Translations under genes and position numbers: made by a program
Part shown: positions 1,363 to 37,056 of the stretch, piece after piece
How the letters are laid out: each line of letters begins with the position of its first letter
Position numbering within the stretch: the first letter of the stretch is position 1
Notes under the pieces: generated by a model
What the model was told of the DNA's origin: nothing
Seen by the model: the letters and a program-made list of their open reading frames with translations, nothing else
Databases searched by the model: none
Source: a virus
Taxonomy: Duplodnaviria > Heunggongvirae > Uroviricota > Caudoviricetes
DNA: 37,639 nt
Reading direction: 5' to 3' (one strand)
IMG/VR virus record: IMGVR_UViG_2585427795_000009
Location: 1 to 37,639 of that record

Positions 1363-1446
1363 TTAATTTCGATTATTTTTCCCGGATGGAAAATTCTTAG
1401 AAACCGATCACATACAGCTGCATTTATTAAGGTTATCATCCGTTTC

Positions 1447-1533
1447 GCTGAAAAACATAACCCATAAAATGCTAGCTGTACCAGGAACCACCTCCTTAGC
1501 CTGTGTAATCTCCCTTACACGGGCTTATTTTTT
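1447..1533 (+). ncRNA. cyaR: CyaR (RyeE) Hfq-dependent sRNA; its terminator stem-loop forms the prophage att core
   Basis: Sequence GCTGAAAAACATAACCCATAAAATGCTAGCTGTACCAGGAACCACCTCCTTAGCCTGTGTAATCTCCCTTACACGGGCTTATTTTTT matches the CyaR sequence as I recall it, including the CACCUCCU anti-SD loop and a terminal hairpin (GCCTGTGTAA / TTACACGGGC) plus U-tract; lies between yegQ and the prophage as in E. coli K-12. Confidence 0.8.
1507..1533. repeat. Prophage att core, left copy (overlaps cyaR 3' end)
   Basis: 27-bp sequence identical to 37136..37162; reverse complement of the P2 attP core as recalled. Confidence 0.85.
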
Positions 1534-7046: not shown

Positions 7047-8237
7047 TTAATTGCTGTTAACCGAGGTGACCAGATTTGCCAGGTATTTATCGGTAATACG
7101 CTGGCGCAGGGTCAGGTTTTCGAGAGGAGGCACCGGTGTATAGTCGTAGTCGATATACAGTTTTCCGGCCTTGAGGGTTTCCGCATCGTTGGATTCTTCG
7201 CTGAACCAGCATGAGCCATCCACGATATAGCCGTTTGTTTTCAGCTCACGGAATTTGGCATTGATGCCGTCAACGATGTCGCGAATCAGCGTTGCGGTGA
7301 TGGGCTTGTCCACCGCCCACATGTGCGCCTCAGCCATCGTGTCGGCCAGCACCTGCGCGGTGCGGGTGTAGTTTTCAAAGAGGAACAGCGGGTCATCAGA
7401 GCAGGTACGGTTACCCCAGAAGCGGAAACCGTCACGGCGAATCAGCGTTGTGACACCTGACTCATTCAACAGGTCAGCATCGGTGCCGGACTCCTGCAAA
7501 TCCCAGAATACAGAGGCACTGATGCCGGTAACACCGTTTACCCCGACGTTGGACAGCGTTTTATGCCAGCCCTGCTCCTGGTCGATTCTGGCACGCAGAC
7601 CCAGCGCACGGGCGGTGGCATACGCGGTGGCGGTGGTACTGGTGACCGTATCCCATGCGAGGAAATCCGGCCAGATAACCATCAGTTCACGCTGGCTGAA
7701 ATTCTGGCGGTAGGCTTTCACCTCGGAAATGGTTTTACAGCCCCATGCGCTGATATACCCGAAAGCGCGCAGCTTCTGACAGACTGATGCCAGTGCAACA
7801 GCCACCTCTTTGGTGTCCAGTCCCGGCACGCCGAGAATACGCGGTTTAACACCAGTTACCGACTCCGCCGCCAGCAGGGCTTTCAGTCCGGTGTACTGAC
7901 CGTTTTCGTCGGTGGTGCCGATGATATTGGAAACGGTCTGCGCGAGTTTCGTTTCCTCGTCGTCGCCGGTGCCGTCTTCCACACGCACAACAACGGTGAC
8001 CGGTTTTGACTGGTCGGCGATAGCCTGCAACGACGCCGCCAGCGTGCCTTTTTTACCGGCCTTTGCAATTGCACTCTGCACATTGGTAATCAGCACCGGT
8101 TTATTGAGGGGGAAGATTTCCGCATCCGCATCGCTGGCCGTGCAGACCATGCCAACAATGGCGGTGGATACGGTGGAAATGACGCGGGTGCCGTCGTTAA
8201 TCTCCAGCACCTGCACGCCGTGATGATAGTCACTCAT
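7047..8237 (-). CDS. FI: Contractile tail sheath protein gpFI
   Basis: 396 aa, synteny, size. Confidence 0.9.
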   Translation of the reverse strand: MSDYHHGVQVLEINDGTRVISTVSTAIVGMVCTASDADAEIFPLNKPVLITNVQSAIAKAGKKGTLAASLQAIADQSKPVTVVVRVEDGTGDDEETKLAQTVSNIIGTTDENGQYTGLKALLAAESVTGVKPRILGVPGLDTKEVAVALASVCQKLRAFGYISAWGCKTISEVKAYRQNFSQRELMVIWPDFLAWDTVTSTTATAYATARALGLRARIDQEQGWHKTLSNVGVNGVTGISASVFWDLQESGTDADLLNESGVTTLIRRDGFRFWGNRTCSDDPLFLFENYTRTAQVLADTMAEAHMWAVDKPITATLIRDIVDGINAKFRELKTNGYIVDGSCWFSEESNDAETLKAGKLYIDYDYTPVPPLENLTLRQRITDKYLANLVTSVNSN

Positions 8238-8566: not shown

Positions 8567-9160
8567 TCAATTATGTAAATCTTTTGTTTTATGTTCTTTA
8601 GCGTATTGTGACAACAAATGGCTATAGCGTTTAAGCAAAATATTAGAAAGATTAAGCTCATTCATGAAGTGTTCTTCTAATAAGTAACCATCAATATCAA
8701 CTTTAATATCATTACCACTTTTCATCTTCTGTAACGTAGATTTTACACGCTCCAGCAGGATGCTTTGCTCATGGTAATAGTCCATAAGAAGAGTAACATC
8801 CTCTTTATCAAGCTTACTTAATTCGCTGAAGTAGGATTTAAACACTTTATCAGTCTGGTTTAATGCAATCTGTAAGCGAGGCCCCCCTAATGATTTGACA
8901 TTAATGGCAAAAGGCTCGCCAACAAAATGCTCCGAATTTTCGTCAAAGCCAATATGTCTCGTTTTATCAAGAAAAGTGAGAGCGCGATGGTTATTAGCGA
9001 TTTCATATGCAAACATTGTTCTGATACTGTCCCTCTCAGCCTCCATGCTTATATCATCACGATGATTTGTATAAAATATATTTCCAACAAAGAGAACCAT
9101 AGCAAGAATCACTGAACTTGCCTCCCAGTTAATATTTTTTAATCGTCGCTTAGTAAACAT
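8567..9160 (-). CDS. Hypothetical membrane-anchored protein, AT-rich cargo gene in the Z/fun slot
   Basis: 197-aa ORF with ATG start and AAGGTG SD 6 nt upstream; one N-terminal hydrophobic helix (SSVILAMVLFVGNIFY); clearly lower GC than flanking G and FI; no recognisable motifs. Confidence 0.6.
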   Translation of the reverse strand: MFTKRRLKNINWEASSVILAMVLFVGNIFYTNHRDDISMEAERDSIRTMFAYEIANNHRALTFLDKTRHIGFDENSEHFVGEPFAINVKSLGGPRLQIALNQTDKVFKSYFSELSKLDKEDVTLLMDYYHEQSILLERVKSTLQKMKSGNDIKVDIDGYLLEEHFMNELNLSNILLKRYSHLLSQYAKEHKTKDLHN

Positions 9161-9381: not shown

Positions 9382-9909
9382 TTATTGCGGCATTTCCGGC
9401 CATTCAGGATTTGCAGGATCCACACGGCTGACCAGAACGCTGTAGCGTTCCCATGCTTCCAGTCGGCTGCGTTCCTCATCTGTTGCCATATTCAGCCTGA
9501 CAGCGCGCTCCAGCGGCACAATCACGGATTCTGCTTCGGAAAGCAAAGTTGCCTTTTGTGATTCTGCCAGTTGCTGCTGTTCGTCTGCCGTATAAATCCG
9601 CTTAATCACGGCACCATCCTTAAACATCCATTTACCTGAGTCATCAGCACGTCGGTTGGCAGTAATATCAGGAACCTCGACAACGCTAAAACCTTCAGGG
9701 TTAAGCGTTGAAGCATCTCGGGTGATGCCGACAATTATATTATTCTCGTCGTAAACAATCTTTATCGTCTCTTCCTGAAAATTACTTACTTCCTCATACC
9801 AGTTTTTTCCCTCTTCGGACCATAACCAGATAACATCAAAATTTTTTGTCAGTTGATATTGGGCAACAGTTTTTGGATTACCCGCAGTAATATTTTTTAA
9901 ATGCTGCAT
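9382..9909 (-). CDS. G: Tail fibre assembly protein gpG (Tfa family)
   Basis: 175 aa; Tfa-like C-terminal region ([30 protein letters not shown]); immediately downstream of H; N-terminal half AT-rich. Confidence 0.85.
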
Positions 9910-13929: not shown

Positions 13930-14561
13930 AGAGGGCTCCCGGTTGTGCCGCCGCTGTCGCCGGGGTGTTTATGGGTATGCAGTACCTTACCGTTTGATGA
14001 GAGTTCACCGCCGGTGTGTTCAATGTTGCCGCGCATCGTCCCGCCCTTCTGCACTTCCAGCGTGCCGGTAGTCAGTTTGTTAGTGCAGACCACTTCTGGT
14101 GTGTCCAGGGTGACACGGGTTGACGCTTTCACCGTGACCACCGGTACCGTGGCAGTAACAGAATCAGAAGCCGTCACGCTGGCCGTTTTAATTCCGCTTA
14201 CCGTGAGTGCACTGGTTTCGGGTTCATACTCAATCACCGCCCCGTCAGGGAAACGGATATGCAGGGCATCAGCCGACGCAGACGGCGCAGGGTTATCGCC
14301 GGAATAAATCCCCGGCAGAACGAACGCCGTGTCGAGTTCACCGCCCACGGCCAGAATCAGCACCTGTTCCCCCACGGAAGGTGCCCACCATGTGCGCGAA
14401 CGTCCTGCGCGATGGGTCAGCCACTGAAGCCAGTCGGTGCACATGCCGCCGGTCTGCACGCGGCAGCGACCGGCGTTAAGGTCGGTTTCGACGATAATGC
14501 CGGTGCGAATCATGTTGCGCAGTGCGCGCGCGAGTTCCTGAATATTTGCGAGAGTGTTCAT
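13926..14561 (-). CDS. V: Baseplate spike protein gpV
   Basis: 211 aa from ATG at 14561 (MNTLANIQELARAL...); the ORF track start at 14579 is a TTG extension. Confidence 0.88.
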   Translation of the reverse strand: MNTLANIQELARALRNMIRTGIIVETDLNAGRCRVQTGGMCTDWLQWLTHRAGRSRTWWAPSVGEQVLILAVGGELDTAFVLPGIYSGDNPAPSASADALHIRFPDGAVIEYEPETSALTVSGIKTASVTASDSVTATVPVVTVKASTRVTLDTPEVVCTNKLTTGTLEVQKGGTMRGNIEHTGGELSSNGKVLHTHKHPGDSGGTTGSPL

Positions 14562-14644
14562 GCATGTGAGATTGCACAATATATAAAAGTTATGCTATCT
14601 GGATTCATTTGTAGAACTACCAGACAACATTCAAGGAGAGCGTA

Positions 14645-15430
14645 ATGGTCAGCTATAATGTGACTAATGTGTGGGAGCTAATCGTTTTTTTCCTTTGTAG
14701 CTTTGCAGTATTAGCATTTTTTAGCTTTGGTAAAAGTAACCTTATGAGGCTTATTGCACATTATTTCAATTTTGGATATTCAGACAAAAAATTAAAAAGA
14801 CTTGACCGCGAGTGGCGCGACATTCAACTATTTAAAATAATTAACGGAATCAATGTATCAGGCATTGAAAATGTGAGAATGATACAGCAGGGACTGATTG
14901 ATGGAAAACTAAAAACATCGTATTTTTTCCTTACTCGCATCTGGGGTGACATAACAAAGCCACCACACATAATTAAAACAATAATTGTAATTCTGGCCAG
15001 TATTTTTTACATTCTTCTCGCATGTTACATACACAACGAACAATCCGTTATAGTAAGGGATGCCATAGGCATACCATATAAAAACATGATGTACTATGTT
15101 TATAGTGACAAAGTTCTTTTATCCTTCAAAAATAAAGCAGTTGAATTTAATAAAACTTATAGCCTTGCCGATTGCAAGAGACTGCAAAACGTATTTATAA
15201 AAGACACACTTCCTGAGATCGCCTGCAATAAGCTCTTACAGCTAAACGAGGAGGACTCCGAATGGTTAAGTCAGGAGATTAAAGATAATAACAGTCACAA
15301 AAAAGCATTATTAATACTATCCCTCGTCTATTTCACTTCAGGTCTGGTTATATTCCTGTCATATACAAAATTCTTTTACGCCAATAAGAAGGTTTTAGAA
15401 TACAAAGCATCAAATAAAAATCACTCATAA
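14645..15430 (+). CDS. Hypothetical multi-pass membrane protein, AT-rich cargo gene in the orf30 slot between S and V
   Basis: 261-aa ORF with strong SD (AAGGAGAGCGTAATG); opposite strand to the late operon; three hydrophobic helices (LIVFFLCSFAVLAFFSF, IIKTIIVILASIFYILLACYI, ALLILSLVYFTSGLVIFLSY); much lower GC than neighbours. Confidence 0.65.
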   Translation: MVSYNVTNVWELIVFFLCSFAVLAFFSFGKSNLMRLIAHYFNFGYSDKKLKRLDREWRDIQLFKIINGINVSGIENVRMIQQGLIDGKLKTSYFFLTRIWGDITKPPHIIKTIIVILASIFYILLACYIHNEQSVIVRDAIGIPYKNMMYYVYSDKVLLSFKNKAVEFNKTYSLADCKRLQNVFIKDTLPEIACNKLLQLNEEDSEWLSQEIKDNNSHKKALLILSLVYFTSGLVIFLSYTKFFYANKKVLEYKASNKNHS

Positions 15431-21695: not shown

Positions 21696-23468
21696 ATGAC
21701 CATCACCACAGACACCACTCTTTTACACGACCCGCGTCGTCAGGCGGCGCTGCTGTACTGGCAGGGGTTTTCCGTGCCGCAGATTGCCGCCATGTTGCAG
21801 ATGAAACGCCCGACGGTGCAGAGCTGGAAACAGCGCGACGGCTGGGACAGCGTTGCCCCCATCAGCCGTGTCGAAATGAGTCTGGAAGCGCGGCTGACCC
21901 AGCTCATCATCAAACCGCAGAAAACCGGCGGTGACTTCAAGGAAATTGACCTGCTCGGACGCCAGATTGAACGACTGGCACGGGTCAACCGTTACAGTCA
22001 GACCGGCAACGAGGCAGACCTTAATCCGAACGTCGCTAACCGCAACAAAGGCGGGCGTCGCAAACCGAAAAAGAATTTTTTCAGTGACGAGGCCATCGAA
22101 AAGCTGGAGCAGATTTTCTTTGAGCAGTCTTTCGAATATCAGTTGCACTGGTATCGCGCCGGGCTTGAGCACCGCATCCGCGATATCCTGAAATCCCGCC
22201 AGATTGGCGCGACGTTTTATTTTTCCCGCGAGGCGCTGCTGCGCGCCCTGAAAACCGGTCATAACCAGATTTTTCTGTCGGCCAGTAAAACGCAGGCGTA
22301 TGTGTTCCGCGAATACATCATCGCCTTTGCCCGGCTGGTTGACGTTGACCTGACCGGTGACCCGATTGTCCTGGGCAATAACGGCGCAAAACTGATTTTT
22401 CTCGGCACCAACTCCAACACCGCGCAGAGCCATAACGGCGACCTGTACGTCGATGAGATTTTCTGGATCCCGAATTTTCAGGTACTGCGTAAGGTGGCAT
22501 CAGGTATGGCCTCACAGAGTCACCTGCGCTCGACCTATTTCTCCACCCCGTCCACGCTGGCGCACGACGCCTACCCGTTCTGGTCGGGTGAACTGTTCAA
22601 CCGGGGACGCGCCAGCGCCGCCGAACGTGTGGAAATCGACGTCAGTCATAACGCCCTTGCCGGTGGTCTTCTCTGTGCGGACGGCCAGTGGCGGCAGATT
22701 GTCACCATTGAGGACGCGCTGAAAGGCGGCTGCACGCTGTTCGACATTGAACAGCTCAAACGCGAAAACAGCGCCGATGATTTTAAAAATCTGTTCATGT
22801 GTGAATTTGTTGACGACAAGGCGTCGGTGTTCCCGTTCGAGGAGCTGCAACGCTGCATGGTCGACACGCTGGAAGAATGGGAAGACTATGCCCCCTTTGC
22901 TGCCAATCCGTTCGGCTCCCGTCCGGTATGGATTGGTTACGACCCGTCACACCGTGGCGACAGCGCCGGATGCGTGGTGCTGGCACCGCCGGTGGTGGCC
23001 GGTGGCAAATTCAGAATACTTGAGCGTCATCAGTGGAAAGGCATGGACTTTGCCACTCAGGCTGAATCCATCCGCAAACTCACCGAAAAATACAACGTCG
23101 AATACATCGGAATTGATGCCACCGGCCTCGGTGTCGGCGTGTTCCAGCTCGTGCGCTCGTTCTATCCCGCCGCGCGCGACATCCGCTACACGCCGGAAAT
23201 GAAAACCGCAATGGTGCTCAAGGCCAAAGACGTTATCCGCCGTGGCTGTCTGGAATATGACGTCAGCGCCACCGACATCACCAGCTCGTTTATGGCTATC
23301 CGCAAGACCATGACCAGCAGCGGACGCAGCGCCACCTATGAGGCCAGCCGCAGCGAGGAAGCCAGCCACGCCGACCTCGCCTGGGCGACCATGCACGCCC
23401 TGTTAAATGAGCCACTCACCGCCGGTATCAGCACCCCGCTGACATCCACCATTCTGGAGTTTTACTGA
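21696..23468 (+). CDS. P: Terminase large (ATPase) subunit gpP
   Basis: 590 aa from ATG 21696 (MTITTDTTLLHDPRRQ...); divergent from O; stop overlaps Q start (TGATG). Confidence 0.9.
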   Translation: MTITTDTTLLHDPRRQAALLYWQGFSVPQIAAMLQMKRPTVQSWKQRDGWDSVAPISRVEMSLEARLTQLIIKPQKTGGDFKEIDLLGRQIERLARVNRYSQTGNEADLNPNVANRNKGGRRKPKKNFFSDEAIEKLEQIFFEQSFEYQLHWYRAGLEHRIRDILKSRQIGATFYFSREALLRALKTGHNQIFLSASKTQAYVFREYIIAFARLVDVDLTGDPIVLGNNGAKLIFLGTNSNTAQSHNGDLYVDEIFWIPNFQVLRKVASGMASQSHLRSTYFSTPSTLAHDAYPFWSGELFNRGRASAAERVEIDVSHNALAGGLLCADGQWRQIVTIEDALKGGCTLFDIEQLKRENSADDFKNLFMCEFVDDKASVFPFEELQRCMVDTLEEWEDYAPFAANPFGSRPVWIGYDPSHRGDSAGCVVLAPPVVAGGKFRILERHQWKGMDFATQAESIRKLTEKYNVEYIGIDATGLGVGVFQLVRSFYPAARDIRYTPEMKTAMVLKAKDVIRRGCLEYDVSATDITSSFMAIRKTMTSSGRSATYEASRSEEASHADLAWATMHALLNEPLTAGISTPLTSTILEFY

Positions 23469-24487
23469 TGAGCAAGAAAAAAGGGAAAACACCGCGACCT
23501 GCGGCAAAAACAATCACCGCCAGCGCCCCGAAAATGGAAGCATTCACCTTTGGCGAGCCGGTGCCGGTACTCGACCGCCGTGACATTCTGGATTACGTTG
23601 AGTGCATCAGTAACGGCAGATGGTATGAGCCACCGGTCAGCTTTACCGGTCTGGCAAAAAGCCTGCGTGCTGCCGTGCATCACAGCTCCCCGATTTACGT
23701 CAAACGCAATATTCTGGCCTCGACATTTATCCCGCATCCGTGGCTTTCCCAGCAGGATTTCAGCCGCTTTGTGCTGGATTTTCTGGTGTTCGGTAATGCG
23801 TTTCTGGAAAAGCGTTACAGCACCACCGGTAAGGTCATCAGACTGGAAACCTCACCGGCAAAATATCCCCGCCGTGGCGTGGAAGAGGATGTTTACTGGT
23901 GGGTGCCGTCCTTCCATGAGCCGACACCTTTCGCGCCCGGCTCCGTGTTTCACCTGCTGGAGCCGGATATTAATCAGGAGCTGTACGGTCTGCCGGAATA
24001 TCTCAGCGCCCTTAACTCTGCCTGGCTGAATGAATCAGCCACGCTGTTCCGCCGCAAGTATTACGAAAACGGCGCTCATGCCGGATACATCATGTATGTC
24101 ACCGATGCCGTGCAGGATCGCAACGATATCGAAATGCTTCGCGAAAACATGGTTAAGTCGAAAGGCCGCAACAACTTTAAAAACCTGTTTCTCTATGCCC
24201 CACAGGGGAAAGCCGACGGCATTAAAATTATCCCCCTCAGTGAAGTGGCGACGAAGGACGATTTTTTTAATATCAAAAAAGTCAGCGCCGCAGATCTCCT
24301 GGACGCACACCGCATCCCCTTTCAGTTGATGGGCGGTAAGCCGGAGAATGTCGGGTCACTAGGAGATATTGAGAAAGTGGCAAAGGTCTTTGTCCGCAAT
24401 GAACTCATTCCATTACAGGAGAGAATAAAGTCAATAAATGAATGGTTAGATATGGAAGTCATAAAATTCCTTGATTATAACTTATAA
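23468..24487 (+). CDS. Q: Portal protein gpQ
   Basis: 339 aa, synteny P-Q next to the cos region; last 25 or so codons are AT-rich. Confidence 0.88.
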   Translation: MSKKKGKTPRPAAKTITASAPKMEAFTFGEPVPVLDRRDILDYVECISNGRWYEPPVSFTGLAKSLRAAVHHSSPIYVKRNILASTFIPHPWLSQQDFSRFVLDFLVFGNAFLEKRYSTTGKVIRLETSPAKYPRRGVEEDVYWWVPSFHEPTPFAPGSVFHLLEPDINQELYGLPEYLSALNSAWLNESATLFRRKYYENGAHAGYIMYVTDAVQDRNDIEMLRENMVKSKGRNNFKNLFLYAPQGKADGIKIIPLSEVATKDDFFNIKKVSAADLLDAHRIPFQLMGGKPENVGSLGDIEKVAKVFVRNELIPLQERIKSINEWLDMEVIKFLDYNL

Positions 24488-24729
24488 GTAAATATATAAA
24501 GTTGGCGGAATGCAATCCCGCCAACTTAACTATATATGCGTATTTTCATGAAAGGAGATCACTCAATAACTTCCATCGAGATCGGGTAATAACATTTGAA
24601 CAGATCGCTGAATAACATCGATGGAGATCACTTTTGACTCATTTTGTTATTCAGTGATCTCCATCAATGTTATTGGAACTTCACAGGTGTGTTGATCTGT
24701 ATCTTTTGCCATTCCGGTAAAGGATACCT

Positions 24730-26271
24730 ATGCCAACAGTTCCAATTTCTATGAGAAAACTTAAAGAAATTCTTAGGCTTAAATACGGTGTTGGACTCAG
24801 CCATCGACAAATTGGTCGTAGTCTTGCAATCTCCCCTTCCGTTGTATCCAGATATGCTAATCGGGCGGCTCAACTTGGCATAAAGCAGTGGCCCTTACCT
24901 ACAGGATGGGATGATACAAAACTAAAACATGCGTTCCTTCAGACCCAGGTTAAGATGAAGAAGCACTCTCTGCCTGACTGGGCTACAGTACACCGGGAAC
25001 TGCGTAATAAATGCGTGACGCTGCAGCTACTCTGGGAAGAATACTGTGAGCGTAATCCAGGCGGTTTTTACAGCTATAACCATTACTGCCGGATGTACCG
25101 TGAATGGCTCAAAACCACTTCACCATCAATGCGTCAGGTACATAAAGCTGGCGAAAAACTTTTCGTTGATTACTGTGGACCTACCGTTGGCGTTACCGAC
25201 CCTGAGACCGGAGAAATAAGAACTGCTCAGGTCATCGTAGCTGTTCTCGGGGCATCAAGTTACACATGGGCAGAGGCCACCTGGTCTCAGCAGCTTGAAG
25301 ACTGGGTGATGAGTCATGTTCGCTGCTTCCAGTGGTTGGGTGGCGTTCCTGAACTTGTTGTTCCGGACAATCTGAAAAGCGCCACATCCAGGGCATGTAA
25401 GTATGATCCTGACGTTAACCCTACCTACCAGCAGATGCTTGAGCATTATAATGTCGCAGTTTTGCCTGCGCGGCCACGTAAACCGAAAGATAAAGCCAAA
25501 GCTGAAGTTGGCGTTCAGGTTGTTGAACGCTGGATCATGGCCCGAATCAGGCATGAGATCTTCTACAGCCTTGCATCGCTTAATCAGCGCATTCGGGAGT
25601 TGCTGGAAAGACTGAATAACAAAATAATGCAGAAGTTGGGTTATTCACGTGCAGAACTCTTCATCCAGCTTGATAAACCCGCACTGAAGCCTCTTCCTGA
25701 AGCCAGTTACAGTTACACCCTGGTGAAGAAAGTCAGAGTTCATGCCGATTACCACGTGGAAATCGACAAACATTACTACTCGGTTCCATGTTCGCTGTTA
25801 GGCCAGCAACTGGAAGCATGGATCTCCGGAGAACTGGTAAGACTCTTCAATCAGGGGCAGGAGGTTGCTGTGCACCCGCGCAAGCGTACTTATGGCTACA
25901 GTACCCGCAACGAGCACATGCCTGAAGCTCATCGACAGCATGCCACCTGGACGCCAGAGCGTCTTCTGGAATGGGCGGGGCACATAGGCAGTGAAACTCA
26001 TAGTTATGTGCTTCATATACTGAACTCTCGTCCACATCCGGAACAAAGCTATCGCTTCTGCCTTGGACTCCTGAACCTTCATAAAAAATACAGTAAAGCC
26101 AGACTTAATGCAGCATGTGCAAGAGCTCTGAAAACAAAGGTATGGCGTCTGTCAGGTATTAAATCGATCCTGGAAAAAGGTCTGGATAAACAACCTGTTC
26201 AGGATCCAAAACCAGATCTGTTATCCACGATGGAACACGAAAACGTACGCGGCAGTGAGTATTACCACTGA
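24730..26271 (+). CDS. istA: IS21-family transposase IstA
   Basis: 513 aa; N-terminal HTH (LSHRQIGRSLAISPSVVSRY), DDE-type core, SD AAAGGA upstream. Confidence 0.9.
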   Translation: MPTVPISMRKLKEILRLKYGVGLSHRQIGRSLAISPSVVSRYANRAAQLGIKQWPLPTGWDDTKLKHAFLQTQVKMKKHSLPDWATVHRELRNKCVTLQLLWEEYCERNPGGFYSYNHYCRMYREWLKTTSPSMRQVHKAGEKLFVDYCGPTVGVTDPETGEIRTAQVIVAVLGASSYTWAEATWSQQLEDWVMSHVRCFQWLGGVPELVVPDNLKSATSRACKYDPDVNPTYQQMLEHYNVAVLPARPRKPKDKAKAEVGVQVVERWIMARIRHEIFYSLASLNQRIRELLERLNNKIMQKLGYSRAELFIQLDKPALKPLPEASYSYTLVKKVRVHADYHVEIDKHYYSVPCSLLGQQLEAWISGELVRLFNQGQEVAVHPRKRTYGYSTRNEHMPEAHRQHATWTPERLLEWAGHIGSETHSYVLHILNSRPHPEQSYRFCLGLLNLHKKYSKARLNAACARALKTKVWRLSGIKSILEKGLDKQPVQDPKPDLLSTMEHENVRGSEYYH

Positions 26272-26282
26272 TACGGGATCCA

Positions 26283-27032
26283 ATGATGAATCATCTTTAC
26301 GAACAACTGACCGCACTTAAACTCACCGGCTTCCGTGATGCGCTTAAAAAGCAACTTGCTCAGCCGGGCACATACCAGGAGCTGGGCTTCGAAGAACGCC
26401 TGTCATTACTGACAGCAGAAGAACTAACCTGCCGTGAAAACAGGAAGGCAGAGCGTCTGATCAAACATGCACGGTTCAGACTTAATGCTGAGTTATCAAA
26501 GCTGGATTATCGTAACAATAGAGGGCTGGACAGGGCCCTCATCCGTTCACTCAGTCAGGGAAACTGGTTAACCCTGAAACAAAATATTTTACTGACCGGG
26601 GCCACCGGCAGCGGTAAAACGTTCCTGGCATGTGCACTTGGTCATAATGCCTGCCGACAGGGATACAAGGTCTACTATTATCGCCTTAAAGCGCTGATGG
26701 AACAGTGCTATCAGGGGCATGCTGATGGAAGATACAGCAAACTTTTGACCAGGCTGAATAATAGCGATCTGCTGCTTCTGGATGACTGGGGGCTGGAACC
26801 TCTCTCATCAGAACAGCGTAGCGACCTGCTGGAAATAGTGGATCTGATGTACCAACGAGGCTCAATCATCGTAGTGAGCCAGTTGCCGGTGGAAAACTGG
26901 TACAAAATGATCGGAGACTCCACACATGCGGATGCCATCCTAGATCGACTGGTTCATGGCAGTATCAAGATCGAACTTAAAGGAGAATCAATGCGGAAAA
27001 TACAATCTCCGTTGACCGAAGGAGATCAGTGA
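26283..27032 (+). CDS. istB: IS21-family ATP-binding helper IstB
   Basis: 249 aa; Walker A (LLTGATGSGKTF) and Walker B (LLLLDDWG); AAA+ IstB pattern. Confidence 0.9.
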   Translation: MMNHLYEQLTALKLTGFRDALKKQLAQPGTYQELGFEERLSLLTAEELTCRENRKAERLIKHARFRLNAELSKLDYRNNRGLDRALIRSLSQGNWLTLKQNILLTGATGSGKTFLACALGHNACRQGYKVYYYRLKALMEQCYQGHADGRYSKLLTRLNNSDLLLLDDWGLEPLSSEQRSDLLEIVDLMYQRGSIIVVSQLPVENWYKMIGDSTHADAILDRLVHGSIKIELKGESMRKIQSPLTEGDQ

Positions 27033-27118
27033 AGGTAATTTAAAAACGGTTCTGTGAAAGTGACACGAACCGATCTCCATCGATGTTACTCACCGATCTC
27101 CTTCACGGTAATACGCAA

Positions 27119-27826
27119 CTATATATACTTCCTTTTTACTCTACTTAATTCTATCACTGATGAGGAGTGACAAAATGACAAATTAATAGTATCGATATAA
27201 TCCAAAATTTGACTCTCAACCTCAATAAAAATATTTTTGGGCCCATTACTAATCGATATACCGATTTCATCCAAAACAGCCATCATTTTTCTCTGATGAG
27301 TTTTATATTTATAGTCTTTATTTTCCTCTGTAATATGTGCATTGGCTTCCTCAATAACACATTTGATTCTAGATATTATTTCTAGATAATCTCTCGAAAC
27401 AGATATATCACCGCCTTGCGCTTCAGGGAACATAACCCTATACCATCTAAAAAAATTAACTTTCTCTGGATAGATGCTACTTCTTTTAGTTAACTCAGCA
27501 CTTGCAAATTCTCTAAACATCGTCAGATGACTAGTGTAATTACTATTATTATTATTTTTAACTCCAGCGTTATATGTCATCAAAGCAATCATAACACCAA
27601 AAACGGTAACAAAAGTTGTTATAAGCCATCCAAACGCCTGAAAATACATTACTATACCAGATGTTTTTTCCGCAAAAAATTTTAAGCACTGGCTATCGAA
27701 GCATATATCACGCTCATATAGCTTTTCATTCTGAATAGTTTCAAAAAGAGAAATTAGCGAAAAAATCAAAAAAAGAGCTGACGACACACCGACAATATAT
27801 TTGAGAAGTCTAATATTTGCATTCAT
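27119..27826 (-). CDS. 2-TM membrane protein, candidate effector translationally coupled to the upstream reverse transcriptase
   Basis: 235 aa; two N-terminal TM helices (LLKYIVGVSSALFLIFSLISLF and GIVMYFQAFGWLITTFVTVFGVMIALM) then a roughly 150-aa soluble domain; its ATG overlaps the RT stop (ATGA); AT-rich. Confidence 0.7.
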   Translation of the reverse strand: MNANIRLLKYIVGVSSALFLIFSLISLFETIQNEKLYERDICFDSQCLKFFAEKTSGIVMYFQAFGWLITTFVTVFGVMIALMTYNAGVKNNNNSNYTSHLTMFREFASAELTKRSSIYPEKVNFFRWYRVMFPEAQGGDISVSRDYLEIISRIKCVIEEANAHITEENKDYKYKTHQRKMMAVLDEIGISISNGPKNIFIEVESQILDYIDTINLSFCHSSSVIELSRVKRKYI

Positions 27827-29049
27827 AATGGTTTTAAAGATGCCAATCTAGATTTAAAACACTCCAGTTTTTCTTTAAATGATTCAGAGCGAGTAAGAAT
27901 AATCATCTTATATCTCGTCAAATCATATTTTCTTTTATACCAATGTTTATTTTGATTACCTTTCGAATACGACAACTCTAAACTTTTTATAGCTGCATCA
28001 ATCACAGCAACATCTCTTTTAGATGGCATCGGTTTTATTGCCTGCAACTGTTTCTTGAATGATTCATATTTTTCATGCCCAACACGGCCAAGCTTATTCA
28101 CTCTCCCCATACATCTATTGAATTCTTTTCTGTATGCAACACTTGTTTTTGTGTTATTTTTTGCCGCCAGTAATTTCAAATTATGTATAGATGCCCTGAT
28201 TCTTTTGACTTCATCGGATGGTAGTCGAGGTGAGTCATAGTCAACTCTTAAACCATGTACTTTTATAGGTTCAGATGAACAGTGAAATATTTTAGTTTTG
28301 TGCTTATTTATCGGCAAGTCATGCTCAGAAAGCATCCTCTCTATATGGCTTTGCATTTGAGAAAAATCATAATTACTTATTTTAGATGACACGGTAATAT
28401 CATCTACCAAACGCGTATAAACAAGTCCTTTCCTCTGCGCACGTCTTACCACATCCCCTTCAACAGCGAATAAACACAAAGTTGCTATATAGCTTGATGT
28501 TAAGGCCCCCTGTACGACAAAATCATCCTTAGTACATATATCCACCAAGTATTCAAGAGCCTCATCCTTAATATGCAATATCTCCTCAAACACGCTCCTA
28601 ACCAGATCTCTATGGATATTATCGAAAAAATTACTTATATCCACCTTGAGAACTGTTTTTGCTCCACAATGAGCCTTTGCACATGAAACATAGTCACGTT
28701 TGACATTAGAATTTAAAACATCATTTTTACTGGGAACTGAACCAAACAAAAATGAAGGAAAAACAACCAATTCCTTAAAGATACGTTTATTAATTCTACT
28801 CTGTAATAATCTCATTTTAGGATGCAGGGAGTAGACAATCCGTTTGCTTCCGTCAATTTTGGGAATTTCTTTTAGAGTATATTTCTCATCTAATGGTAAT
28901 TCTGCAATAGCTTTAAGCTCTTCAACAGAAATCGATAAAGCCTTTGACAACTTTTCAAGTGTTGTGATAGGAGCATTGGATTTGCTGTATGGTTTAAATT
29001 TATCCATAAACATACCATTCAAATTCAAAGTTACGTACGGTCTTCCCAT
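27823..29049 (-). CDS. Retron-type reverse transcriptase (start uncertain: ATG at 29049, 29013 or 29007)
   Basis: RT motifs read directly: KRIVYSLHPKMRLLQSRI (motif 1-2), CAKAH-x5-VLKVDISNFFDNI (NAxxH-like plus motif A), QGALTSSYIATL (motif B), YTRLVDDITVS (motif C, YxDD), LPINKHKTKIF (motif E), IKVHGL in the position of the retron VTG motif; about 130-aa C-terminal extension. Confidence 0.82.
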   Translation of the reverse strand: MGRPYVTLNLNGMFMDKFKPYSKSNAPITTLEKLSKALSISVEELKAIAELPLDEKYTLKEIPKIDGSKRIVYSLHPKMRLLQSRINKRIFKELVVFPSFLFGSVPSKNDVLNSNVKRDYVSCAKAHCGAKTVLKVDISNFFDNIHRDLVRSVFEEILHIKDEALEYLVDICTKDDFVVQGALTSSYIATLCLFAVEGDVVRRAQRKGLVYTRLVDDITVSSKISNYDFSQMQSHIERMLSEHDLPINKHKTKIFHCSSEPIKVHGLRVDYDSPRLPSDEVKRIRASIHNLKLLAAKNNTKTSVAYRKEFNRCMGRVNKLGRVGHEKYESFKKQLQAIKPMPSKRDVAVIDAAIKSLELSYSKGNQNKHWYKRKYDLTRYKMIILTRSESFKEKLECFKSRLASLKPL

Positions 29050-29265
29050 ACTCAAGGGTGGAACAGCAGAGATGCTTACATCAACAATTGTCAGCAACAG
29101 CCTCTGCTATCTTTCGACCGTACGTAATGTCGTCGGCTACGGCACCATCGTAGTTGACGACGGTGGGGCCTCGCTGATAGGTCCATAGTGGACGCTTTTT
29201 TGTAAAAGCAAAAACTGACAATTTAATGTTGTTGACTGCCGCATACCAAGCGAATCGCTGGTGCG
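29050..29265 (-). ncRNA. Candidate structured leader or ncRNA upstream of the retron-type RT (possible msr-msd-like element)
   Basis: Non-coding leader with several perfect hairpins (GTCCA-TAG-TGGAC 29181..29193; GCTTTT-N4-AAAAGC 29194..29209; CACCATCG-N7-CGACGGTG 29143..29165) and two interleaved long-range inverted repeats (29031..29040 with 29118..29127, 10 bp; 29081..29094 with 29215..29236). Sequence-only inference. Confidence 0.3.
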
Positions 29266-29271
29266 CTAAGA

Positions 29272-29300
29272 ATAATGCAACAAAAAAATAAGAATTTCAA
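29272..29300 (-). promoter_or_regulatory. Putative sigma-70 promoter for the RT/2-TM operon
   Basis: On the minus strand: TTGAAA (-35), 17-nt spacer, CATTAT (-10); about 215-250 nt upstream of the RT start. Confidence 0.3.
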
Positions 29301-29338
29301 CCGGGTAACTGCAAGCCAGCGACATCGTTTAGCGCGCA

Positions 29339-29357
29339 GTGCTTTCCCCGCCTCGCC
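29339..29357. other. cos site (19-nt cohesive-end sequence of P2/P4 type)
   Basis: Minus-strand sequence GGCGAGGCGGGGAAAGCAC matches the P2 cohesive end as I recall it; flanked at 29357..29380 by hairpin CCGCCC-N8-GGGCGG plus TTTT. Confidence 0.75.
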
Positions 29358-29546
29358 CGCCCGCTTAATGGGGCGGTTTTAATGCACTTGCATTATGTCC
29401 CGCTCCTCAGTGCTGCGCTCCATCCTGATTACAAAAACCGTTATCAAAAACACATGCAAATAGACGCAGTCAAATGCACTACCGCCTCTCGCAATACCTT
29501 CAATTTCATGATAAAAAACATCATCCCTAACAAGAGCATTATCCTC

Positions 29547-31094
29547 ATGAAAAAAGTATATGAACTAACCAGTGAAGAAGCACTGTCATATTTTCTTCGC
29601 CATGACTCCTACACAACCTTAGAATTACCGGCTTATATTAATTTCACCACATTATTAAATGATATTAATTCATCTATCCATAACAAAAAAATTAAAATTG
29701 AACCAACCGCCAAGGAGCTGATGGGTAAAGATATCAATTATGAGGTGCTTGTCAGTAAAGATGGTCTATATAGCTGGCGTAGGATAACACTTATCAATCC
29801 CCTTTATTATGTCTACTTCTGTAGAAAAATCACAGCACCAACAACCTGGGAAATCATAACAGAAAAATTCAAATCTTTTGAATCAAACGACCTTTTTACA
29901 TGTTCAAGCATCCCCGTCAGAAAAGACAACTCGTCAAACATTGCTGCGTCTGTAATGAATTGGTGGGAAGATTTTGAACAAAAAAGCCTTGCCCTTGCTC
30001 TTGAATACGAATTCATGTTCAGCACTGACATCTCAAACTTCTACCCATCAATATATACTCATAGTTTTGAATGGGTATTCATATCAAAAGAAGATGCAAA
30101 GAAGAAAAAAAACAAAAATAACCCAGGGGGATTAATTGACAGCCACATTCAAATGATGATGAACAACCAGACAAATGGTATTCCACTCGGCAGCACATTG
30201 ATGGATACATTTGCTGAGCTTATCTTGGGTCAAATCGATATAGAATTAAGAAAAAAAACTAACGAACTCAAAATAATAAACTACAAGGTAGTACGCTACC
30301 GTGATGATTACCGGATCTTCTCTAATAGCAAAGATGATTTAGACATAATATCAAAATGTTTAGTCAATGTGTTGGGCGATTTTGGTTTAGATCTAAACTC
30401 AAAAAAAACTGAACTATATGAAGACATCATACTTCATTCGTTGAAACAAGCCAAAAAAGACTACATCAAAGAAAAAAGACATAAGTCACTCCAGAAAATG
30501 CTCTATTCAATATATTTATTTTCACTTAAACATCCAAACTCGAAAACAACCGTTAGATATCTAAATGATTTTCTTAGGGATTTATTTAAGCGAAAGTCAA
30601 TTAAAGATAACGGCCAACAGGTTGATGCTATGCTTGGTATTATTTCAAGCATCATGGCAAAAAACCCTACAACGTACCCAGTAGGAACGGCAATTTTCTC
30701 AAAACTCCTCAGTTTTCTTTATGGTGATGACACCCAAAAAAAATTAACAAAACTAGAACAGCTCCATAAAAAACTGGATAAACAACCCAATACAGAAATG
30801 CTTGACATATGGTTTCAGCGAACTCAAGCAAAAATAAACCTAGAGTGGAATAAATCTTATAAGTCAGCTCTATGCGTCCGTATAAATGATGAACTCACAA
30901 AAGAGAAAACATTTTCTGTAAATAATTTATGGAATATTGACTGGATCCAAGGAAAAGAAACGAGCCCCAATAAAGCCAAGATATTATCCTTGCTAAGAAA
31001 AACAAAAATCGTTGACACAGATAAATTTGATAAAATGGATGACAATATAACACCTGAAGAAGTTAATCTATTCTTTAAAGAGCACAGCAATTAA
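29547..31094 (+). CDS. AbiK/Abi-P2-like (UG/Abi class) reverse transcriptase in the old/tin position (start uncertain; longest ATG is at 29382)
   Basis: Motifs STDISNFYPSIYTHS (compare AbiK LDLSNFYHTLYTHS), GIPLGSTLMDTFAELIL (motif B), VVRYRDDYRIF (motif C), GLDLNSKKTEL (motif E), then a roughly 250-aa helical C-terminal domain; AT-rich; the 29382..29546 extension overlaps the cos-flanking region and is probably not coding. Confidence 0.8.
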   Translation: MKKVYELTSEEALSYFLRHDSYTTLELPAYINFTTLLNDINSSIHNKKIKIEPTAKELMGKDINYEVLVSKDGLYSWRRITLINPLYYVYFCRKITAPTTWEIITEKFKSFESNDLFTCSSIPVRKDNSSNIAASVMNWWEDFEQKSLALALEYEFMFSTDISNFYPSIYTHSFEWVFISKEDAKKKKNKNNPGGLIDSHIQMMMNNQTNGIPLGSTLMDTFAELILGQIDIELRKKTNELKIINYKVVRYRDDYRIFSNSKDDLDIISKCLVNVLGDFGLDLNSKKTELYEDIILHSLKQAKKDYIKEKRHKSLQKMLYSIYLFSLKHPNSKTTVRYLNDFLRDLFKRKSIKDNGQQVDAMLGIISSIMAKNPTTYPVGTAIFSKLLSFLYGDDTQKKLTKLEQLHKKLDKQPNTEMLDIWFQRTQAKINLEWNKSYKSALCVRINDELTKEKTFSVNNLWNIDWIQGKETSPNKAKILSLLRKTKIVDTDKFDKMDDNITPEEVNLFFKEHSN

Positions 31095-31198: not shown

Positions 31199-33484
31199 TT
31201 AGCTCCACTTAATATCCGTTATATCCTCCAGCCACTCCTCATCTACAAGATAGGTGAATTTTTTCCCGTCATAATTTACGGTTGCTCCACGTGCCAGCGC
31301 CTCAAGCTCCCATCGCTGCGGCCTGATACCGTTCTGAGCGAGGTCAACGCGGATACGGGTAATTTGCATTCGTTCTGACCGGGTCAGTCTGGCCGATGGC
31401 GCTATTTCATGTGGTTTTAACGGGCTTCCGTTTCTCTGCTGACGACCAGTCGTTCTCAGGCCGTGTTTTAATGCTCCCCTGAGCGCCTTCACGACCTCCG
31501 GGTCATTCCATTCGATAACACCGTCATCAACCAGATTAAGCACTGCTGCGGCGTGCTCAGAAGGTGTGGGAGCTGGTAACGAAGCATCACCACTGGTGAG
31601 CTTTCCACAGTTATTGACAGGACTCCGAGGCGCGGCGATGCCGCTTTTTAAAGTCAAAGGCTCAACGACCGGAACTTTCGGCACAATGCGCCAGTCCGTC
31701 GTTCTGGTGATATGAATATGACGCGCGCCGAGATGCGGCGCGTAAATGCCGACCACTCTCTCGACTTCTTCCTCGTATTCGTTGACGTCATCCGACGGAC
31801 TACGGGCAACCCTGACAATCTGACTATCGCGCGGGACATTTGCCCCGCCCTGCGCGCTGATATACAGCGCAAAATCACCACTGTCTGCGGCGGCGCGTGC
31901 AGCCTCGACGCGCTCGTCAAACTCATCAGCAATGCTGACGCCGCGCGGCAATTTGCGTAGTTCACGGTAAGCCCCCATTGTCGGCAGACCAACCGTTTTA
32001 AATTGCGGGATGCGCCACGTTGACGCCCATGCGGTAACAGCCGCGGCAGTGTCTTTCAGCGGTCTGCCGGTATCATTATCGAGCTGACCATCCAGTGCAT
32101 ATCCGTCGATATTTTTTGAGATGTACTTCGCGATATACCCCGCAGCACCGCCCCGGTTAAGGTGTTTCGCCTGAAAACGGTTTCGCGCGGCTCCTCTTTC
32201 GTCGCCATCCTCTTTGAGCGCGTAGCGACGCATGATTTCAATAATCTGGTTACGCTGGCGTGGATTACAAAAAAGCATCATATGCCAGTGCGGCGTTCCG
32301 TCGTGGTGTGGCTCGACGACACGCAAACCGTAGACCTGTAAATCATTATCCTTGAATGCCGTGCGCATCAGGCTCCAGATGCGGCAGAGATAACGCTGCG
32401 CATCCTTTGGATTAAATGCCTCATCGTTCCAGCCGTGATTAAGCTGAACGGTTTTACTTTCGCCTTTTCTGACCTGACGAGTCGGGTGATACTTTGACGG
32501 CGCAGTCAGCGTGATAAACATCCCCACATCACCCTCTGCGGCGGCGTAACGCTCAATACCGGCAATGGTGTTCATCAGCTCCATCCGGCGAATTTCAGGA
32601 TTAGAAATACTGCCCATCACCTTACTGATAAGGTCGATGCGCTCGCCGGTTTCCCTGTTTTCAAGGTCACACGATTTAAGAAATTCCAGATTTGCCTGGC
32701 GGCGCGCACGCACATCACGAATGGCGTGTTTACTGGCATAAGGAGAACGGTCTTTATTGACCTCCCCGACAGCTATCAGTAACGCTTCATGCCAGCGCAT
32801 ACGCTGGCCTTTAAGCTGATGAGTCCACCACTCATCGTTAAACAGACGGGCAATGGCAGAATATGCCTGCCTCGTGGTTATCTGTCCTTTACGGTATTTT
32901 TTCCAGTAGAGCGGGGAAATATTGAAAGCTCGTGCAGCGCCAGCAACATGACCATACAGGTGAGCCTGAGCCTCATCCGTAAACAGTGATTCTTTTTCGC
33001 CATGCGCATCCACCCAGGCATCGCTGAGTTCCTCATACATCATGAAAAGCTGCGATGAGATACGGGCAGCAAACTTTTTCAGCTCCTTGTCATTCATTCC
33101 CGGCAGGCGCGCATAGTGGTCACGCTCTGCCAGAAACAGCAACGACGCGTCGGTGTTCATTTCATGGCGCTGATTCACACGCTCAATGCGCGGCCATAAA
33201 CGACGCTGAAAAGTGGATGTGAGGAAATAAAACCCGTGTACCGGGCTTTTATTGCGCCGGATGTAGTCATAGCGTGAAGTAAACAGCGAGCGCAAAAAGT
33301 AAGGCAGGCGGTTAATCGTGGATAAAACACCTTGCACCTGACGCATCTCGTCACGTGTAAGGGGTCTTTCGCGCCCGACGGCCTCGCGTGGCGCGTTCCA
33401 TGCATAAGCACCGGTAAACGTCTCACCGGTGCCTGCGGCAAATGCTGACGGAGGGACAAAATGCACGGAGGCTTTAACGGCCAT
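31199..33484 (-). CDS. A: Replication initiation protein gpA (rolling-circle nickase)
   Basis: 761 aa from ATG 33484 (MAVKASVHFVPP...); the ORF track start at 33526 is a TTG extension; size and synteny match P2 A. Confidence 0.9.
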   Translation of the reverse strand: MAVKASVHFVPPSAFAAGTGETFTGAYAWNAPREAVGRERPLTRDEMRQVQGVLSTINRLPYFLRSLFTSRYDYIRRNKSPVHGFYFLTSTFQRRLWPRIERVNQRHEMNTDASLLFLAERDHYARLPGMNDKELKKFAARISSQLFMMYEELSDAWVDAHGEKESLFTDEAQAHLYGHVAGAARAFNISPLYWKKYRKGQITTRQAYSAIARLFNDEWWTHQLKGQRMRWHEALLIAVGEVNKDRSPYASKHAIRDVRARRQANLEFLKSCDLENRETGERIDLISKVMGSISNPEIRRMELMNTIAGIERYAAAEGDVGMFITLTAPSKYHPTRQVRKGESKTVQLNHGWNDEAFNPKDAQRYLCRIWSLMRTAFKDNDLQVYGLRVVEPHHDGTPHWHMMLFCNPRQRNQIIEIMRRYALKEDGDERGAARNRFQAKHLNRGGAAGYIAKYISKNIDGYALDGQLDNDTGRPLKDTAAAVTAWASTWRIPQFKTVGLPTMGAYRELRKLPRGVSIADEFDERVEAARAAADSGDFALYISAQGGANVPRDSQIVRVARSPSDDVNEYEEEVERVVGIYAPHLGARHIHITRTTDWRIVPKVPVVEPLTLKSGIAAPRSPVNNCGKLTSGDASLPAPTPSEHAAAVLNLVDDGVIEWNDPEVVKALRGALKHGLRTTGRQQRNGSPLKPHEIAPSARLTRSERMQITRIRVDLAQNGIRPQRWELEALARGATVNYDGKKFTYLVDEEWLEDITDIKWS

Positions 33485-33749
33485 ATGAGCCAAAAGCCTC
33501 TGAACAACGCTTGCTGAGTTGCTCAACCTGCGCGTTTAAATCAGCAAAAGACTTTGCGCTTCCGGTCAGAATATCGTGATGCATCAGGCCGGAAACGAGC
33601 TGGCTTAATTTCGGGTAATAACCAACCACCGCCAGCCACTCCTGACCGGCGTTTTTACCGCTTTCCGCTCTCTTTTTCTCGTGGAGAATAAACTGAAAGC
33701 TGTCACTGGTAACGACATAACGTTCGCCAATTTCGATACGAATACTCAT
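33474..33749 (-). CDS. P2 orf83-position hypothetical protein
   Basis: 91 aa, synteny between B and A. Confidence 0.65.
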   Translation of the reverse strand: MSIRIEIGERYVVTSDSFQFILHEKKRAESGKNAGQEWLAVVGYYPKLSQLVSGLMHHDILTGSAKSFADLNAQVEQLSKRCSEAFGSYGR

Positions 33750-36042: not shown

Positions 36043-37056
36043 ATGGCAATCAAAAAACTCGATGATGGTCGATATGAAGTGGACATCCGCCCTACTGGAC
36101 GTAATGGAAAACGCATCCGTAGGAAGTTTGATAAGAAAAGCGAAGCTGTCGCTTTCGAGAAATACACGTTGTACAACCACCACAATAAAGAATGGCTATC
36201 AAAACCAACAGACAAGCGACGTCTGTCGGAGCTGACACAGATCTGGTGGGATTTAAAGGGTAAACACGAAGAGCATGGGAAATCTAATCTTGGAAAAATT
36301 GAAATCTTCACAAAAATAACGAATGACCCATGCGCATTTCAAATTACGAAATCGCTTATCAGCCAGTACTGCGCCACCCGAAGAAGTCAGGGTATTAAAC
36401 CTTCGAGTATCAATCGTGATTTAACATGTATTAGCGGCATGTTTACAGCCCTGATTGAAGCGGAGTTATTCTTTGGTGAGCACCCTATCAGAGGGACAAA
36501 AAGGCTTAAGGAGGAAAAACCAGACACAGGCTATCTCACGCAGGAAGAAATTGCCTTACTGCTTGCTGCTCTTGACGGCGACAACAAAAAGATTGCGATT
36601 CTTTGCCTGAGTACTGGAGCACGTTGGGGAGAAGCAGCTCGTTTGAAAGCAGAAAATATCATCCATAACCGCGTCACGTTTGTTAAAACGAAAACAAACA
36701 AACCACGCACCGTCCCGATCTCAGAGGCTGTTGCCAAAATGATCGCGGATAACAAACGAGGTTTTTTATTCCCTGATGCTGATTACCCTCGCTTCAGACG
36801 AACAATGAAAGCAATAAAACCGGATTTGCCAATGGGGCAAGCCACACATGCACTAAGGCACAGCTTTGCCACTCATTTCATGATTAATGGAGGAAGTATT
36901 ATCACACTACAACGGATACTAGGTCACACGCGGATTGAGCAAACTATGGTTTACGCTCATTTTGCGCCAGAGTACCTTCAGGACGCCATTTCTCTTAATC
37001 CGCTAAGAGGTGGTACTGAGGCCGAGAGTGTCCACATAGTGTCCACAGTAGAGTAA
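36043..37056 (+). CDS. int: Tyrosine integrase
   Basis: 337 aa; C-terminal catalytic signature HALRHSFATHFMINGGSIITLQRILGHTRIEQTMVYAHF (R..H-x-x-R...Y); adjacent to the att core. Confidence 0.9.
   Translation: MAIKKLDDGRYEVDIRPTGRNGKRIRRKFDKKSEAVAFEKYTLYNHHNKEWLSKPTDKRRLSELTQIWWDLKGKHEEHGKSNLGKIEIFTKITNDPCAFQITKSLISQYCATRRSQGIKPSSINRDLTCISGMFTALIEAELFFGEHPIRGTKRLKEEKPDTGYLTQEEIALLLAALDGDNKKIAILCLSTGARWGEAARLKAENIIHNRVTFVKTKTNKPRTVPISEAVAKMIADNKRGFLFPDADYPRFRRTMKAIKPDLPMGQATHALRHSFATHFMINGGSIITLQRILGHTRIEQTMVYAHFAPEYLQDAISLNPLRGGTEAESVHIVSTVE

Follow-up and report, generated by a model that had tools for sequence, protein, structure and literature searches.

We analysed a stretch of DNA of 37,639 nucleotides (nt) from a tailed virus (IMG/VR record IMGVR_UViG_2585427795_000009, positions 1 to 37,639; the whole stretch is called the window here) and examined a two-gene locus on its minus strand, between positions 27119 and 29300, that encodes a reverse transcriptase (RT) and a protein with two transmembrane (2-TM) helices. 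Judged from sequence comparison, these two genes and a noncoding RNA (ncRNA) upstream of them are almost certainly retron Ec48 (Retron-Eco6, type IV of Mestre's classification), carried as cargo between the cohesive-end site (cos) and the portal gene Q of a P2-like prophage. The Ec48 cassette found here is an already known defence system and is neither a new nor a divergent family. Retron Ec48 is said to have been first described by Mao et al. in 1997. It is already curated, with NCBIfam and PADLOC models and a Pfam family for its effector, and it has been known as an anti-phage guard of RecBCD since 2020. The components form a single minus-strand operon, in which a promoter-proximal structured ncRNA is followed by the retron RT gene and then by the overlapping 2-TM effector gene. 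Their positions in the window are as follows.

29339..29357, minus strand: P2-type cos cohesive end, 19 nt, GGCGAGGCGGGGAAAGCAC; exact and single match, with 0 matches in 100 shuffles
29272..29300, minus strand: probable sigma-70 promoter, with -35 TTGAAA at 29300-29295, a 17-nt spacer and -10 CATTAT at 29277-29272 (consensus scan)
29030..29266, minus strand: Ec48 ncRNA (msr-msd), from the clone match and covariation
27823..29007, minus strand: Ec48 RT gene, 394 amino acids (aa) from the ATG at 29007, which is the start given by the Prokaryotic Genome Annotation Pipeline (PGAP); catalytic box LVDD
ATG 29049 (408 aa) and TTG 29097 (424 aa, longest open reading frame [ORF], 27823..29097), minus strand: alternative in-frame RT starts
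27119..27826, minus strand: Ec48 effector gene, 235 aa, two TM helices with a C-x4-C motif between them

Identification of the locus as retron Ec48

The RT was compared with the PADLOC models, and its best match was to RT_IV (7.6e-177, 586 bits), with RT_V as the runner-up (3.8e-63, 212 bits). RT residues 36-423 aligned to positions 2-385 of the 386 positions of the RT_IV profile, and Pfam RVT_1 also matched the protein (1.7e-31). The product of the downstream gene matched PADLOC 2TM_IV at 4.1e-85 and scored 226.7 bits against the NCBIfam equivalog NF038235 (retron_Ec48_2TM), for which the cut-off is 65. The UniRef name attached to this exact effector sequence is "Retron Ec48 transmembrane protein, TM48_ECOLX," the latter being a Swiss-Prot entry name. 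The earlier note on this DNA, which was made from the sequence alone, had proposed an operon of a retron-type RT and a 2-TM effector resembling that of Ec48, and these matches bear the proposal out and take it one step further, to Ec48 itself.

The published clone used for comparison was the Ec48 insert of pAA10, of which the first 399 characters were taken (Millman et al. 2020, Suppl. Table 4). Window positions 29366..29088 were an exact 279-nt match to the last 279 of these 399 characters, a stretch that spans cos, the promoter and most of the ncRNA. The 2.28-kb cassette was found by megablast at ≥99.8% identity in 57 complete E. coli genomes, where the RefSeq label is "retron Ec48 family effector membrane protein," and phage pro147 also carries the Ec48 cassette. 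The exact 394-aa form of the RT was present on 227 contigs and the exact 408-aa form on 114.

All of the RT motifs that had been quoted from the sequence, namely LSISVEELKAIAEL, CAKAH, VDISNFFDNI, QGALTSSY, LVDD and VHG, were found in the translation. The catalytic aspartates are D216 and D217 in the numbering of the 408-aa form, the same residues as those changed in the D216A/D217A mutant of Millman et al. (2020). The earlier note had drawn attention to CAKAH, to VHG and to a C-terminal extension of about 130 aa as unusual. The two motifs are indeed there, but as oddities they do not stand: a review of retrons names two validated RTs with a substitution of the asparagine in NAxxH, RT-Eco6 (Ec48) being one of them, and gives VHG in place of VTG for the same enzyme (PMC6868368). 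When 17 type IV RTs that are 46 to 79% identical were aligned, C109, H113, H251 and G252 were invariant and A110 and V250 nearly so. The extension proved not to be unusual either, as it is covered end to end by the RT_IV profile and recurs in homologues from Enterobacterales, Pseudomonas, Marinobacter and others, which match with 93 to 100% coverage and as little as 44% identity. Since CAKAH, VHG and the long C-terminus are published or family-wide, they are hallmarks of the family and not signs of divergence.

The effector ATG (27826-27824) overlaps the RT TGA (27825-27823) as ATGA, and by this overlap the effector gene is, on the reading of the sequence, translationally coupled to the RT gene; the two AT-rich genes with this stop/start arrangement lie where they had been described. 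The two TM helices that had been noticed were placed by hydropathy at about residues 7-30 and 58-86, and both fall within the delta3-85 deletion of Millman et al. (2020). Of 35 distant loci, nearly all have a gene of the 2TM type (about 230 to 255 aa) located at the RT stop or shortly after it, and in four intermediate loci the RT-adjacent gene carries Pfam PF28197 (Retron_Ec48_antiviral).

The location of the operon also agrees with what had been proposed. Because cos is at 29339-29357 (source of the P2 cos sequence, PMC3931495) and Q is at 23468..24487, the retron operon lies between the two, with an insertion sequence now standing between the effector gene and Q, as described below. Upstream, the retron cassette is bounded by the cos site: P2 homology stops at about 29331, and P2-family phages match only window positions 29331-29393. 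The G+C (GC) content is 0.30 to 0.37 over 27001-29000 versus about 0.55 in the phage structural genes. In P2-like phages, the interval gpA-cos-gpQ is a published hotspot for defence genes (PMC9122126).

Promoter and noncoding RNA

From the probable sigma-70 promoter, transcription is predicted to start at about 29266. The -35-like element (TTGAAA/TTGAtt) is kept in position in 6 related loci, and in nearly all of 25 homologues a TAnnnT-like hexamer was seen by eye some 6 to 10 nt before an invariant GC. In an upstream alignment of six related loci, sequence conservation starts right after the -10-like box and runs to about 29030, past the ATG at 29049. The observations on the ncRNA refer to loci L004 to L040 and L083 to L086. 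Comparison of related loci gave the following elements, all of them on the minus strand.

29264-29241: stem-loop SL1, well supported
29235-29215 with 29094-29081: pseudoknot arms, well supported
29209-29194: SL2, well supported
29193-29181: SL3, well supported
29165-29143, with an alternative pairing at 29161-29129: msd hairpin, variable and poorly aligned, 38.8% paired
29127-29116 with 29042-29031: long-range helix, well supported
29108-29102 with 29071-29065: inner helix, well supported
29059-29044: conserved hairpin whose conserved loop contains ATG 29049, well supported

The structure was examined in a G-INS-i alignment of 21 homologues, in which 80.9% of cells were paired versus 66.1% in shuffles and 32 to 43% with slid partners, the structure under test having been derived from the comparisons of related loci. 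The covariation score was 0.516 versus 0.245 in shuffles, and compensatory changes were present in 54 of the 65 pairs. A single-sequence fold of 29330-29095 gave a z-score of -1.47 and was uninformative. A search of Rfam at both gathering and E-value thresholds gave neither a retron family nor a meaningful match, and it found no RNA of a group II intron; a family for the ncRNA of type IV retrons does not exist in that database. A literature text search with msDNA-Ec48 sequence strings gave no matches, and the Ec48 ncRNA sequence was not in the supplements of PMC8989520 and PMC6868368.

These observations bear on where the RT begins. The ATG at 29049-29047 lies inside the near-invariant hairpin loop UAUGGG, and in some homologues, read by eye, an in-frame stop follows it. 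This codon is the start of the 408-aa form under which the RT is annotated in the literature. Given the location of 29049 within a near-invariant RNA motif and the in-frame stop after it in some homologues, the RT most likely starts at ATG 29007 and not at ATG 29049 or TTG 29097, as judged from the aligned sequences.

According to the census paper, the Eco6 ncRNA is 29283..29101 and its RT-DNA begins at the complement of C29120; the census authors also considered that clade 3 ncRNAs may be noncanonical. Candidate pairings for the canonical a1/a2 stem were tried. The only long candidate, 29325-29314 with 29138-29127, was rejected, as its upstream arm lacks conservation in homologues and is situated ahead of the conserved promoter, and the pairing of 29264-29256 with 29150-29142 was rejected by eye, as it is not conserved in the alignment and SL1 accounts for its 5' arm. 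The census limits of the ncRNA imply a canonical a1 that would precede the invariant GC and pair with the sequence following the msd. Such an arm is unsupported, because the region before the invariant GC resembles a -10 box in nearly all homologues and shows no cognate-specific complementarity to the sequence following the msd (duplex energies of -5.24 kcal/mol for cognate and -5.10 for noncognate partners). The family-invariant Gs are at 29264, 29242, 29137, 29102/29101, 29098 and 29042, and models with priming from each of these were neither confirmed nor excluded.

In 21 to 25 homologues, the ncRNA appears to start at the invariant GC at the first stem-loop, without a detectable 5' a1. It is pseudoknotted, and its conserved long-range helices are internal. 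The most conserved domain, an msr-like three-way junction, lies 3' of the msd hairpin and ends within 25 nt of the RT start codon. Such an arrangement suggests that type IV ncRNAs may depart from the canonical a1-G-msr-msd-a2 layout, which we hold to be unlikely; if true, it would hint at a permuted priming geometry that is possibly undescribed.

An ISEc12 insertion at the 3' end of the effector gene

The effector gene is followed directly by an insertion sequence, beyond which lies a GC-rich hairpin.

24537..27117, plus strand: ISEc12 (IS21-like), 2581 bp, with istA at 24730-26271 and istB at 26283-27032 (Pfam rve and IstB_IS21)
24499..24527, no strand assigned: GC-rich hairpin AAGTTGGCGG-AATGCAATC-CCGCCAACTT, read from the sequence

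The element, which agrees with annotated ISEc12 copies at 100% identity, lies between the two copies of an 8-bp target-site duplication, ACTATATA (24529-24536 and 27118-27125). The TAG stop of the effector gene (27121-27119) lies inside the right-hand copy of the duplication, so that the effector ORF is intact. When the window was aligned with the uninterrupted strain UPEC-245U, two aligned blocks abutted at the insertion and the cassette was 100% identical. None of the other cassette-bearing genomes that were examined showed the insertion; their matches run past the insertion point, and three prophages that carry the cassette (L001, L002 and L003) are uninterrupted. In these three, Q and the effector gene converge and are 42 nt apart; the hairpin lies within this gap, and it is likely to be a bidirectional terminator, a prediction made from its sequence and position. 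In the window, ISEc12 stands between the effector gene and Q, the hairpin has been displaced 2.6 kb from the retron, and istAB is oriented towards the effector gene. From this arrangement we infer that ISEc12 leaves all three retron components intact, removes the native terminator and sets convergent istAB transcription against the operon.

Weighing of other readings

The locus was then weighed against readings other than Ec48. The earlier note had allowed that the operon may be a divergent family, that is, an undescribed RT-plus-2TM family that merely resembles Ec48. What speaks for such a family is that VHG stands in place of VTG and CAKAH in place of NAxxH, that the C-terminus is long, and that the RT passes no NCBIfam RT model, the best of them being retron_St85_RT with 111 bits versus a cut-off of 235. 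The same traits are published for RT-Ec48 and conserved across type IV, however, the match to the RT_IV profile runs from one end to the other (586 bits), the stretch of cos, promoter and ncRNA equals the Ec48 clone exactly, and the effector passes the Ec48 equivalog model; a divergent family is accordingly extremely improbable. It would be more improbable still that the RT belongs to a nonretron class (defence-associated RTs [DRT] or the related UG groups, abortive infection [Abi] RTs, or group II introns) and that the downstream gene encodes an unrelated membrane protein. An AbiP2-type RT does adjoin the locus, and there are weak cross-matches to models of Drt2, Drt3a, AbiA and group II intron RTs, but these all fall far below the respective NCBIfam cut-offs: 35 bits versus 390 for Drt2, 40 versus 200 for Drt3a, 24 versus 250 for AbiA, and 45 versus 300 for the group II RT/maturase TIGR04416. 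The top 25 PADLOC matches of the RT were retron RT models, with the exception of one CRISPR-associated RT model, and contained no DRT or Abi model, so that classification by profile, which had been proposed as a check, placed the RT in retron type IV. In addition, the closest solved structures found by a sequence search of PDB are the retron RTs Ec86, Kva2, Ec67 and Ec78, all of them distant, and a conserved ncRNA lies upstream; the same search found no structure of the Ec48 RT and no match for the effector.

Several points weigh against the identification as Ec48 and temper it. The identity of the RT coding sequence to that of the tested clone would follow from the cassette uniformity of ≥99.8% and the matching residue numbering, and not from a base-by-base comparison. 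The accession given for the Eco6 RT in the census paper is WP_097505494.1 versus WP_021565821.1 in RefSeq for the RT found here, a mismatch that may reflect a different start or a few substitutions. The defence function of this copy would be that of the published clone, from which it is carried over, and ISEc12 at the 3' end could alter expression of the retron. The last point leads to a further reading, in which the locus is a genuine Ec48 that is functionally impaired here, being silenced, destabilised or in decay through the loss of its terminator and convergent transcription from ISEc12. The junction 3 nt past the effector stop with its fresh 8-bp duplication, the native hairpin 2.6 kb away, the direction of istAB and the finding of this insertion in none of the other cassette-bearing genomes examined all agree with such an impairment. 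Against this, all ORFs are intact, the effector and the compared stretch of promoter and ncRNA equal the reference, the cassette is 100% identical to that of the uninterrupted strain, and two terminator-like minus-strand sites within about 100 nt inside the end of the insertion sequence (27021-26994) could substitute for the lost hairpin. We consider an impaired copy rather improbable, and an intact retron Ec48 in a P2-like prophage remains the preferred reading.

Prophage surroundings

Other features of the prophage were located at the following positions.

23468..24487: portal gene Q
29382-31094, plus strand: AbiP2-type RT (PADLOC AbiP2, 2.1e-161; PGAP start at 29547)
31199..33526: gpA
36043-37056: integrase

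The AbiP2-type RT lies directly across cos from the retron, and two unrelated RT-based defence genes thereby flank the packaging site. Window positions 29377-29450, which include the ATG of the AbiP2-type ORF at 29382, match the P2-EC30 record AM157365, and the exact AbiP2 allele is joined to Ec48 in only 3 complete E. coli genomes. At the end of the prophage, the adjoining CyaR/RyeE small RNA (1445-1530, plus strand; Rfam, 100.7 bits) marks the yegQ-cyaR attachment region of P2-like prophages.

Two further AT-rich islands were observed. One, with a GC content of 0.34, holds a 197-aa ORF on the minus strand (8567-9160) between the genes for tail sheath FI (7047-8237) and tail-fibre assembly G (9382-9909). 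This is the Z/fun position, the other known variable locus of P2-like phages. The second island (14259-15430, GC content of 0.35 to 0.37) contains two plus-strand ORFs, one of 128 aa at 14259-14645 and one of 261 aa at 14645-15430, which run counter to the flanking tail genes. Neither the 197-aa ORF nor the 128-aa and 261-aa ORFs had a Pfam or PADLOC match.

Mode of action as published for the Ec48 clone

If this copy acts as the published clone does, the RT would reverse-transcribe part of the ncRNA into multicopy single-stranded DNA (msDNA) of 48 nt (45 by sequencing), and the RT-msDNA complex would monitor RecBCD. The trigger would be the inactivation of RecBCD by a phage inhibitor (such as lambda Gam or T7 gp5.9) or by deletion of recB, upon which the 2-TM effector would bring about cell death or growth arrest before the phage cycle is completed, as in abortive infection.

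This sequence of events is drawn from work on the Ec48 clone, which protects against phages of three families (Millman et al. 2020). Escape mutants of lambda vir mapped to gam, and T7 escapers were changed in genes 5.9 and 1.7; expression of Gam or gp5.9 killed Ec48-bearing cells, and the Ec48 plasmid could not be established in recB mutants (Millman et al. 2020). Defence was lost in the RT catalytic mutants (D216/D217) and upon deletion of the TM helices (Millman et al. 2020). As a trigger of Eco6, Gam by itself is as strong as the complete Red operon, and the effector was not toxic when overexpressed alone. For the RT-DNA, whose length is set by RNase H1, the original report gave 48 nt and sequencing gave 45 nt. 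The mutation of the catalytic aspartates, the removal of the TM helices and the search for msDNA, experiments like those that had been suggested as checks on the locus, have thus already been published for Ec48. The window makes the questions that surround Ec48 (how RecBCD is sensed, how the 2-TM protein acts and where msDNA synthesis is primed) no more testable than the existing clone does. The value of the locus is in its annotation, as two distinct RT-based defence genes flank cos and a recent ISEc12 insertion is found at the 3' end of the retron.

Comparison with known systems

A similar retron is Se72 (Retron-Sen1, type V), whose RT also belongs to clade 3 and whose model, RT_V, was the second best for the Ec48 RT in PADLOC at 212 bits. 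Se72 is triggered by lambda Gam and by the loss of RecB, and it therefore guards RecBCD as well, but its effector is a cold-shock-domain protein and not a 2-TM protein, and its RT is about 25% identical to that of Ec48. Retrons Ec67 and Ec86 share the kind of site, since they occupy the equivalent cos-to-terminator position in 186-like prophages, as far as can be taken from the title of Dodd and Egan (1996) in the reference list of PMC6868368, and a cos-like sequence also lies upstream of the Ec67 and Ec86 inserts (Millman et al. 2020, Suppl. Table 4). They differ from Ec48 in having other ncRNAs and other triggers, Ec67 being a type I-C retron with an RT-Toprim fusion and Ec86 a type II-A3 retron with an effector like nucleoside deoxyribosyltransferase (NDT).

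Cyclic-oligonucleotide-based antiphage signalling systems (CBASS) with 2-TM effectors are similar in that a membrane-spanning protein serves abortive infection, an analogy made by Millman et al. (2020), but what activates them is a cyclic oligonucleotide instead of a retron RT-msDNA complex. The PADLOC, Pfam and PDB searches revealed no sequence relationship between the Ec48 genes and the CBASS 2-TM effectors. P2 Old, like tin, resides in the same cos-proximal gpA-cos-gpQ hotspot. Old also resembles Ec48 in being activated when RecBCD is inhibited or absent, and it excludes lambda, but it is a nuclease of the ABC-ATPase/TOPRIM kind, its gene lies on the gpA side of cos, and it works without an RT, msDNA or a membrane effector.

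The closest comparison is with the published Ec48 clone. The locus in the window shares with it the exact 279 nt, an effector that bears the Ec48 name, the RT motifs and their numbering, the gene order, the ATGA overlap and a site downstream of a P2-type cos. It differs from the clone in having ISEc12 at the effector stop and in what lies across cos, which is an AbiP2-type RT in the window versus unrelated sequence in the clone.

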